Shown in pieces: positions 17,178 through 29,225 of a stretch of 32,000 nt of DNA (position 1 is the stretch's first letter; each line of letters opens with the position of its first letter). Source of the DNA: Candidatus Hermodarchaeota archaeon. GTDB taxonomy: Archaea > Asgardarchaeota > Heimdallarchaeia > Hodarchaeales > Hodarchaeaceae. The notes under the pieces were generated by a model. That model ran no database searches, had not been told where the DNA came from, and saw only the letters and a program-made list of their open reading frames with translations. The translations under genes were made by a program, and so were the position numbers. The DNA lies in the NCBI GenBank assembly GCA_048886185.1, contig JBHLKY010000003.1, positions 30,001 through 62,000 on the forward strand, given 5' to 3'.

Positions 17178-17221
17178 ATTTAATCACTTTGAGATAAGGG
17201 GAGTTTTTATACGAAAAGGAA

Positions 17222-17361
17222 TGCTCCGACCGGGATTTTCCGACTACAAACGATCTGTTTGTTTCCTTTGAACCCGGGTCCTTCCGCGTGGATTCAATAT
17301 CGAATTCAGCCAGATTCGGGGCGAAAGCCCGGAATGATGGGCCGAGCTACACTATCGGAGC
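17222..17361 (-). tRNA. tRNA-Glu(TTC), two non-canonical introns: about 43/44 (17282-17315, 34 nt) and 59/60 (17236-17266, 31 nt)
   Basis: Acceptor GCTCCGA/TCGGAGC; T-arm CCGGG-TTCAAA|T-CCCGG. The 75-nt mature form has a C27.A43 mismatch, so the first junction is less certain. Confidence 0.82.
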
Positions 17362-17560
17362 AGATCCTCATGAAATACAGCCCTTTATCGGCAATACAAC
17401 CCCCCTTGCTTCAAATTAAAAAGGTTTGTTAGCAAAAAGATAAACTATGAAACAAGAGCTAAAAGAGTTAAGCAAGATTTTAGGTTTTGTAGAATAGCAA
17501 ATCAAAAACATATTAAATCTGATTAAACCTTGTATCCCTTAACTAGGAACTGAAAAAGAG

Positions 17561-28241: not shown

Positions 28242-28345
28242 TACCAACAAAACTAGAGATTAAAACACTTCTCTACTCTGAAAATGCATTAAATCAGAGT
28301 AATATATATAGTCTTAAATTTACTTTCTAAAGTTCATAATTAGAA

Positions 28346-28450
28346 CGGGCGCAGAGGGATTTGAACCCCCGACCAACAGGTATCTTTAGGTTAAATATAG
28401 AAACTTAATCATTAAAAGCCTGTCGCTCTACCTGGCTGAGCTATGCGCCC
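28346..28450 (-). tRNA. tRNA-Lys(TTT), one 31-nt intron at 37/38 (28382-28412)
   Basis: GGGCGCA/TGCGCCC, ACAGG/CCTGT; perfect BHB central helix CUUU/AAAG. Confidence 0.95.
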
Positions 28451-28459
28451 TTAGGTGTC

Positions 28460-28567
28460 TGGCGCCCCGGTCGGGATTTGAACCCGAGTCGGATGGGATC
28501 AGCAGACTATCAGGCTTGATACACCTTTGACAGCCATCAATGCTAGGCCAGACTACACCACCGGGGC
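28460..28567 (-). tRNA. tRNA-Asp(GTC), one 30-nt intron at 37/38 (28498-28527); CCA encoded
   Basis: GCCCCGG/CCGGGGC, GATGG/CCATC, TCGGG-TTCAAAT-CCCGA; relaxed BHB with 3 of 4 central pairs. Confidence 0.95.
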
Positions 28568-28766
28568 TATATTTGAAATAAAGGCCTCTATTACCTTTTT
28601 GTTAAATATGCCTTCAAGTCTGTCCCTTCTTTCTCAATTTTTTAAATTAATCCTCTCTTAAAGATATTCAACATCTAGTTCCTGCATAACCTTAAAATCC
28701 TAGACACAATGCAAGGAAAATTGCTAGATACCCCTTCGTGTAGGGTCTTATCCCCGAATCATATGT

Positions 28767-28987
28767 GCTGGGGTGGCTTAAATGGTAATAACAATATTAT
28801 CATGGCGATGCCTGGTATAATCATACTGTCTATAGTCAGAATGCCGATAGCGCGGGACTCATAATCTGAGATGAATACTCATAACTTTCCAAGGGCAAGA
28901 ATCGCGCTTTCAGACGAGACATCCCGAAGTCGGGGGTTCAAAATAAGGTAAATTGCGATTTACTTTTTGAAAATCCCCTCCCCAGCA
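28767..28987 (+). tRNA. tRNA-Met(CAT), elongator-like, four introns: 14/15 (28781-28809), 22/23 (28819-28848), 37/38 (28864-28920), 59/60 (28943-28973)
   Basis: Removal gives a 74-nt cloverleaf GCTGGGGTGGCTTAGCCTGGTATAGCGCGGGACTCATAATCCCGAAGTCGGGGGTTCAAATCCCCTCCCCAGCA; all four junctions fold as BHB-type motifs. Confidence 0.87.
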
Positions 28988-29085
28988 TCTATTCGACTTC
29001 CCTTAGCATAAACAGATGTATATTTGCAGCACAACTCAATTAAGACCAATCACGTTCAGAATTGATATGTAAAGAAAAGCCCACT

Positions 29086-29225
29086 GCTCCGATAGTGTAG
29101 CTCGGCCCATCATTCAGGGCTCTCAATGAAGTCCACTAGATATGGGGCTCTCAGGAGTTCCCCTGTGACCCGGGTTCAAAGGAAACAAACAGGCCGTTTG
29201 TAGTCGGAAAATCCCGGTCGGAGCA
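29086..29225 (+). tRNA. tRNA-Glu(CTC), two introns: 37/38 (29126-29159, 34 nt) and 59/60 (29181-29211, 31 nt)
   Basis: GCTCCGA/TCGGAGC, CAGGG/CCCTG; anticodon BHB CUCU/GGAG; 75 nt mature. Confidence 0.92.

Follow-up and report, generated by a model that had tools for sequence, protein, structure and literature searches.

A 221-nt locus on the + strand of the window (positions 28767-28987), by which we mean the whole 32,000-nt stretch of DNA analysed (G000:C3:30001-62000), is made up of five GC-rich segments (14, 9, 15, 22 and 14 nt) alternating with four AT-rich inserts (29, 30, 57 and 31 nt), and it raises the question of whether a sequence broken into such small pieces can still give rise to a working tRNA and, if so, to which one. 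The nearest named relatives of the MAG harbouring the locus (4.84 Mb, 96% complete, 35% GC) are MAGs assigned to Candidatus Hodarchaeum, Hodarchaeota and Heimdallarchaeota, three of them closed chromosomes; the genome therefore belongs to the Hodarchaeales, in keeping with its preliminary description as Asgard-like. Our analysis indicates that the locus is most likely the sole working gene for elongator tRNA-Met(CAU) in this genome, interrupted by four BHB introns that would be spliced by proteins.

Five exons and four inserts

When the inserts (28781-28809, 28819-28848, 28864-28920 and 28943-28973) were taken out, ARAGORN read the joined 74-mer as a perfect tRNA-Met(cat) cloverleaf extending from nucleotide 1 to 74, with acceptor, anticodon and T stems of 7, 5 and 5 bp, a D stem of 3 bp plus a U13.U22 mismatch, the anticodon loop CUCAUAA, a variable loop of 5 nt, the T-loop UUCAAAU and A as discriminator. 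The collapse of the 221 nt to a regular 74-nt cloverleaf, proposed in the preliminary description from the letters of the DNA, was thus recovered by an independent program, and the coordinates and lengths given there for exons and inserts were exact on re-extraction.

All parts of the gene lie on the + strand. Exon 1 (28767-28780, 14 nt) supplies the 5' strand of the acceptor stem, nucleotides 8-9, the 5' strand of the D-stem and A14, and is followed at 14/15 by intron 1 (28781-28809, 29 nt), a relaxed HBh' motif with three of four central pairs formed and an intron hairpin of 9 bp. Exon 2 (28810-28818) is a micro-exon of 9 nt which makes up the D-loop and has the same letters in all alleles of the gene. 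It is separated by intron 2 (28819-28848, 30 nt, at 22/23), an HBh' motif with 4/4 central pairs, two of them G-U, and an outer helix of 2 bp, from exon 3 (28849-28863, 15 nt), which contributes the 3' strand of the D-stem, G26, the 5' strand of the anticodon stem and loop nucleotides 32-37 including CAT. Intron 3 (28864-28920, 57 nt) occupies the canonical position 37/38 as an hBHBh' motif composed of the anticodon stem, a central helix with 3/4 pairs and an intron helix of 7 bp. Exon 4 (28921-28942, 22 nt) spans nucleotide 38, the 3' strand of the anticodon stem, the variable loop, the 5' strand of the T-stem and T-loop nucleotides 54-59; intron 4 (28943-28973, 31 nt) interrupts the T-loop at 59/60 as an hBH motif formed by the T stem and 4/4 central pairs, with an internal hairpin of 7 bp; and exon 5 (28974-28987, 14 nt) closes the gene with T-loop nucleotide 60, the 3' strands of the T-stem and the acceptor, and the discriminator A73, CCA not being encoded 3' of it.

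Some features of the introns deserve mention in their own right. Introns 1 and 2 are alike at their ends, both starting with AAT and ending with ATG(G/C)CGAT, a likeness that could come from their similar exon partners (GGCT and TGGT) or from a shared origin. Intron 3, found in every allele with a length of 49-62 nt, begins with 8 nt that never vary and contains the conserved blocks GGGCA and CGCGC; it is unusually conserved over all 20 alleles compared (alignment A1) and includes a small invariant hairpin, TGAG / CTCA. This hairpin was the only structure that RNAalifold retrieved from the exon 3-intron 3-exon 4 region of the 20 alleles, with zero compensatory pairs and no recovery of the BHB. 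A search by eye revealed no box C/D motifs in intron 3 that were conserved across alleles, and Rfam matched none of the introns to a known RNA family at E values up to 10. A function of intron 3 of its own is possible.

The locus escapes the usual annotation tools, as had been anticipated for standard tRNA finders. On the genomic sequence ARAGORN reported no tRNA, whether its intron option was switched on or off, and RF00005, the Rfam model for tRNA, remained below its gathering score at 28767-28987, where it gave no match even at E values up to 10. The failure of RF00005 is due to the four long insertions that break the model and is not evidence against tRNA identity; an ortholog retaining the canonical intron alone, which a Candidatus Hodarchaeum mangrovi contig matches exactly, scored 50.6 bits on the same model against a cut-off of 29.

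Exon joins and BHB motifs across orthologous alleles

The comparison of orthologous loci in related MAGs that the preliminary description had recommended was carried out through a DNA search of 40 related genomes and pattern scans of GTDB species genomes and JGI metagenomes, which together recovered the gene as 23 distinct DNA alleles. If each insert is coded as present (1) or absent (0) in the order 14/15, 22/23, 37/38 and 59/60, the alleles show five patterns: 1111 (n=9, the gene of the window counted), 1011 (n=2), 1010 (n=5), 0110 (n=5) and 0010 (n=2). Sister species of the same genus thus carry this gene with one, two, three or four of the inserts. At each missing insert, the exons on either side meet exactly at the boundaries previously proposed, and this holds in every such allele: exon 1 abuts exon 2 in the orthologs that have no intron 1 (L011, L017, L019 and L020), intron 2 is missing in L013-L016, L029 and L039, where exon 2 is directly followed by exon 3, and 11 of the 22 alleles parsed in full lack intron 4. 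Insert-free alleles therefore prove the four exon joins without appeal to any splicing motif, and the genus provides a natural series of one-, two-, three- and four-intron versions of one gene.

The mature sequences deduced from alleles with all five patterns are nearly identical, differing at few positions, and some of the differences are compensatory: G28-C42 is replaced by A28-U42 in L017, L041 and L042, and G50-C64 by A50-U64 in L011 and L043. Among the alleles sampled the exons are near-invariant and the introns are diverged by ~15-25%. The five presence/absence patterns require at least three or four events of gain or loss, and the series makes a clean data set on the gain and loss of BHB introns. 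Since the single-gene tree of RtcB, intended to order these events, is poorly resolved, we claim no direction of change. As a separate observation, the RtcB proteins of loci L045-L061, all from one GTDB genus, are of two deep types with ~47% and 75-84% identity, respectively, to the protein of this genome, which suggests paralog replacement or transfer.

The same data bear on the suspicion that the gene is an artefact or chimera of a MAG that, after all, is distributed over 75 contigs with 5% contamination. The architecture recurs in independent assemblies from several studies, among them the single-contig chromosomes CP070665, CP070695 and CP070760. The assembly is further supported by DNA contigs of two studies which are identical to the locus where they overlap it: over 28300-29113, zero differences separate it from a 6.4-kb contig of run X1, which may be the source sample, and the same is true over 28531-28861 for contig X5, from another study. 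An assembly error can hardly be credited in the face of these observations.

The geometry of the junctions agrees with the joins. In the layout used, the central helix is formed by the four nucleotides of the exon that precede the 5' bulge and the four of the intron that precede the 3' bulge, and the cut falls after nucleotide 2 of each of the two 3-nt bulges. All four junctions fit this BHB arrangement, two of them in relaxed form with 3 of 4 central pairs; the pairs in the central, exon-side outer and intron-side outer helices amount to 3/0/9 at 14/15, 4/1/2 at 22/23, 3/5/7 at 37/38 and 4/5/0 at 59/60, so that the central-helix counts of the preliminary description (3/4, 4/4, 3/4 and 4/4) and its 9-bp outer helix at 14/15 are reproduced under standard geometry. 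None of the alternative registers giving the same product scores equally well. Across orthologs, the central helices hold 3-4 pairs in every allele, the one at 22/23 having 4/4 in 11 of 12. The fit exceeds chance: when the real exons were kept and each intron was shuffled, 0 of 100,000 sets gave an equally good central helix and an outer helix of at least 2 bp at all four sites together. For random genomic sites, the corresponding frequencies were 5% for at least 3 central pairs plus an outer helix and 0.7% for 4 pairs plus an outer helix.

Covariation was detected in two of the introns. In the intron 1 hairpin, 6 of the 9 pairs are maintained via two-sided changes in 14 alleles, with 87% of the cells paired as compared to 26-60% with slid partners. 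In intron 4, position 57 of the exon T-loop is either A or G and its partner in the intron changes along with it (GC in 6, AU in 3 and GU in 1), and 99% of the cells are paired. The unconstrained minimum-energy fold of the precursor (-67.4 kcal/mol, versus -63.2 for the cloverleaf-plus-BHB fold) keeps the acceptor stem and the hairpins of introns 1 and 4 but not the whole cloverleaf, and the 5' bulge at 59/60 could be closed in this species by extra A-U pairs.

It may be asked whether the gene is real but one of its D-arm inserts is not removed by EndA, either staying in the tRNA as an enlarged D-loop or leaving by another route. The first pair of the central helix at 14/15 is unformed in 12 of 14 alleles, which makes this helix effectively 3 bp long in most of them, the outer helix at 22/23 has just 0-3 bp across alleles, and relaxed BHB classes often arise by chance according to a 2026 preprint (10.64898/2026.10.13.758758). 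Species devoid of either insert have, however, a normal 9-nt D-loop, and an enlargement by 29-30 nt would therefore represent an unusual functional state; the exon-pairing 3' ends of both introns are conserved; and the joint shuffling of all four junctions described above did not produce a single equivalent set. A retained or differently processed D-arm insert thus seems quite improbable, and the reading of all four inserts as BHB introns is the one followed below.

Identity of the tRNA and its place in the tRNA gene set

The intron-tolerant cloverleaf search found exactly three tRNAs with a CAU anticodon in the genome. One of them, on contig C14, is a clear initiator with A1-U72, G29-31:C39-41 and one intron. 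The four-intron gene has G1-C72 and the anticodon stem CGGGA/TCCCG, without the initiator features A1-U72 and G29-G31:C39-C41. The third gene (G000:C3:201822-201947, +) lies directly upstream of tRNA-Asn(GTT), has two introns, one of ~29 nt in the D-loop and one of 21 nt at 37/38, and bears a U50.C64 mismatch in its T-stem. As the genome encodes TiaS, one tRNA-Ile2 is expected, and the problem is reduced to which of the two non-initiator genes it is. The rules of IleRS identity are established in bacteria. The third CAU gene shares with tRNA-Ile(GAT) of the same genome G1-G3, the acceptor pairs 1-5, including C4-G69 and C5-G68, as well as C29-G41 and G31-C39; the four-intron gene has none of these pairs. 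Judged by the bacterial rules and by the likeness to tRNA-Ile(GAT), the four-intron gene is probably the elongator tRNA-Met and not tRNA-Ile2, and the third CAU gene is the likely tRNA-Ile2. Of the preliminary assignment to a tRNA-Met(CAU) with four BHB introns, the CAU anticodon and the four BHB-type introns at 14/15, 22/23, 37/38 and 59/60 thus stand firm, and methionine is the likely identity deduced for it.

The reverse assignment would make the four-intron gene the tRNA-Ile2, with C34 converted to agmatidine by TiaS and charging by IleRS, and the gene at G000:C3:201822-201947 the elongator. Besides the presence of TiaS, it can draw on the D-arm of the four-intron gene, which over nucleotides 8-21 matches that of tRNA-Ile(GAT) almost completely, on its U12-A23 and A73, and on the published four-intron CAT tRNA of Freyarchaeia, which tRNAscan-SE typed as Ile2 and which has inserts at ~15/16, 38/39 and 60/61. 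A similar D-arm is found, however, in tRNA-Thr(GGT), where nucleotides 8-15 are identical, and hence the D-arm is not Ile-specific. The four-intron gene lacks C4-G69 and C29-G41 and its acceptor departs from that of tRNA-Ile(GAT) at 6 of 7 pairs; pairs 1-5 and 29-31 of tRNA-Ile(GAT) are found in the other CAU gene instead. The A38-U39 context of the four-intron gene may also resemble that in the elongator tRNA-Met of other domains, which would speak against Ile2. Our search of the literature on archaeal TiaS or Ile2 identity determinants found nothing usable. On balance an exchange of the two identities is unlikely, and elongator tRNA-Met remains our preferred assignment.

With either identity the four-intron gene is the sole one for its function, and this argues against the view that it is a decaying tRNA pseudogene, riddled with insertions, from which no working tRNA is made. 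Such a view would be in line with the blindness of standard finders to the locus and with its two imperfect central helices, and neither mature, fully spliced RNA nor circular introns were seen in the metatranscriptome contigs. It has to contend, on the other hand, with exons that stay almost unchanged while the introns diverge, with compensatory changes in both the mature stems and the BHB helices, with the lack of an alternative elongator tRNA-Met gene in a genome that is 96% complete, and with the persistence of the four-intron form in nine alleles, three closed chromosomes among them. We consider a pseudogene very improbable and continue to regard the locus as a functional gene.

The gene is an extreme member of a generally fragmented set. 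The custom search identified ~46 tRNA genes, a lower bound obtained with a search relaxed for T-stem mismatches and variable-region introns, as compared to 22 recognized by the Rfam tRNA model; standard annotation would therefore deliver an incomplete set with no elongator tRNA-Met. To judge from the lengths of the insertions, 35 or more of the ~46 genes are interrupted, with ~60 inserts in total or ~1.3 per gene. Four inserts occur only in the gene described here, three in those of tRNA-Trp and tRNA-Thr(GGT), and two or three, by length, in those of tRNA-Phe, tRNA-Leu(TAA) and tRNA-Ser(TGA). Inserts of ~31 nt at 59/60 recur in many tRNA genes of the genome. Side observations were made on several of these genes. 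The neighbouring tRNA-Glu(CTC) gene (29086-29224, +) is interrupted twice, by a 34-nt intron at 37/38 and a 31-nt intron at 59/60, and a paralog with 77% identity is located at positions 17219-17363 (-) of the window. The tRNA-Ile(GAT) gene (G000:C3:168038-168139, -) carries an insert of ~28 nt at the junction of anticodon stem and variable loop (~43/44), a rare position. The tRNA-Trp(CCA) gene (G000:C3:182112-182309, -; 198 nt) has three inserts, one of which is a 63-nt anticodon-loop intron with the motifs CTGA and ATGATGA, which recall the box C/D guide that tRNA-Trp introns of euryarchaea contain.

Proposed splicing of the precursor and relation to known systems

The genome encodes two EndA proteins, each with both Pfam domains, in the regions G000:C8:47026-47280 and C8:79836-80096, together with RtcB and TiaS. 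The first EndA has its nearest counterparts in the catalytic (alpha) subunits from Aeropyrum pernix and Sulfolobus tokodaii, with which it aligns gap-free through the region of the Crenarchaea-specific (L1) loop, and by eye it has Tyr, His and Lys in the expected motifs. The second EndA is beta-like, apparently without the histidine when inspected by eye, and closest to the ARMAN-2 enzyme, the beta-alpha fusion of M. kandleri, the homotetrameric EndA of M. jannaschii (1A79) and the beta subunit NEQ261 of N. equitans. To go by its sequence, the pair fits the (alpha-beta)2 type with an L1 loop, which has been reported from Asgard archaea and tied to a broad substrate range (Kaneta et al. 2018, PMC5829648). 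A broad-specificity endonuclease had been postulated for the splicing of this gene, and a putative enzyme of that type, with an alpha-like and a beta-like EndA, is indeed encoded. It is tempting to propose that the 221-nt gene is transcribed as a single precursor in which the introns would present BHB or relaxed BHB motifs (HBh' at 14/15 and 22/23, hBHBh' at 37/38 and hBH at 59/60). A heterotetrameric (alpha-beta)2 endonuclease with the Crenarchaea/Asgard L1 loop in its alpha subunit would then cut in the two 3-nt bulges, RtcB would presumably ligate the five exons to the 74-nt tRNA, and CCA would be added after the exons had been joined.

The preliminary description held that four introns imply ordered splicing. 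This does not follow from the structure, because all four BHB motifs score equally with the other introns present or removed, and no order is structurally required; a single RNA contig nevertheless hints that the intron at 59/60 goes first. Pieces of alleles of close relatives were found in two wetland metatranscriptome runs (X20 and X21). The contig from X21 is unspliced and spans 28752-28918 with a leader of at least 25 nt, and it may represent DNA carry-over. The one from X20 (163 nt, from one assembly with a low depth of 3.6) covers 28797-28939, starting in the last part of intron 1 and running through exon 2, intron 2, exon 3 and intron 3 into exon 4, after which come 17 letters corresponding to the end of the T-loop, the 3' strands of the T-stem and the acceptor, and the discriminator, where the contig stops. 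Exons 4 and 5 are thus directly joined where the 59/60 junction is predicted, and intron 4 is absent. With an exon 4 of only 22 nt and an assembler working with 31-mers, sequence from intron 3 through exon 4 into exon 5 must lie within individual reads.

The allele nearest to the X20 contig is L006, within the four-intron group. An unsampled strain that has lost intron 4, or DNA carry-over in the RNA library, could also account for the contig. The corresponding pattern with intron 4 alone missing (1110) occurs in none of the DNA alleles. A scan of metagenomes for the joined form of exons 4 and 5 with the TTCGAAG T-loop returned 0 contigs, a weak negative, given that this gene is represented by only 6 contigs in that collection. 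We regard the X20 contig as a probable splicing intermediate, a candidate contributed by a relative, and this one RNA contig suggests early removal of the T-loop intron at 59/60. Should it be genuine in vivo, the T-loop intron might, tentatively, leave before the D-arm and anticodon introns and after trimming of the 3' end. A possible intermediate of this kind is a lead toward the order of processing, and if it is a true one, splicing order and intron turnover become directly testable in a lineage often placed closest to the eukaryotes.

Multiple interruption of tRNA genes has precedents. According to the tRNAscan-SE 2.0 paper, the tRNA genes of archaea have up to three introns, and the maximum of three quoted in the preliminary description was accordingly fair for 2021. 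Its suggestion that a four-intron Asgard tRNA may be undescribed does not hold up. Valentin-Alvarado et al. 2024 (PMC11291895) reported introns in 92-95% of the tRNA genes of three Atabeyarchaeia and Freyarchaeia genomes, and their Supplementary Data 4, in which the columns allow for four introns, lists such genes, among them Ile2-CAT and Arg-TCT of Freyarchaeia and Lys-TTT and Trp-CCA of Atabeyarchaeia. In an October 2026 preprint, Goswami et al. (10.64898/2026.10.13.758758) counted 2.2 inserts per gene in three focal families, with a maximum of five in one gene, repeated gains, and D-arm inserts that are frequently missed by software. The gene described here is therefore a well-documented further case and not a new kind, and the accepted picture of archaeal tRNA splicing is left unchanged by it. 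We found no paper on four-intron genes or heavy tRNA fragmentation in Hodarchaeales.

A close counterpart is the tRNA-Ile2(CAT) gene of Freyarchaeia (1804120-1804286; PMC11291895), likewise an Asgard CAU tRNA broken by four short inserts of BHB type, of which three sit at roughly equivalent sites (D-loop 14-16, 37/38 and T-loop 59-61); the four-intron genes of Freyarchaeia and Atabeyarchaeia, like ours, are partly missed by standard software. The two genes differ in class, Jordiarchaeia for Freyarchaeia and Heimdallarchaeia/Hodarchaeales here, in the place of the second insert (~31/32 versus 22/23) and in identity, Ile2 as opposed to probably Met, and the joins of the present gene are verified by insert-free orthologs. 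The census of Goswami et al. agrees with our data in the occurrence of multi-intron Asgard tRNAs with inserts at BHB boundaries, those of the D-arm escaping software. Its focal families are, however, Freyrarchaeaceae, Jordiarchaeaceae and Atabeyarchaeaceae, with Hodarchaeales unnamed in the main text, and its Heimdallarchaeia mostly have less than one insert per gene, whereas this genome is higher with ~1.3. Heavy fragmentation of tRNA genes, highlighted until now for Jordiarchaeia and Atabeyarchaeia, thus reaches the Hodarchaeales too.

Likenesses extend beyond the Asgard archaea. The disrupted nuclear tRNA genes of Cyanidioschyzon merolae (PMC3728597) also contain ectopic and multiple BHB-like introns, but in a eukaryote, a red alga, that employs the Sen complex and has some of its genes permuted; no permutation was seen in the present gene. 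In the accounts available for Thermoproteales (Pyrobaculum and Thermofilum; Sugahara 2008), several non-canonical BHB introns per gene are combined with an (alpha-beta)2 EndA bearing the L1/CSL loop and with ligation by RtcB, as may be the case here. The maximum reported in these accounts is three introns per gene, in hyperthermophilic members of TACK, whereas the gene of the window contains four and belongs to a mesophilic sediment lineage.
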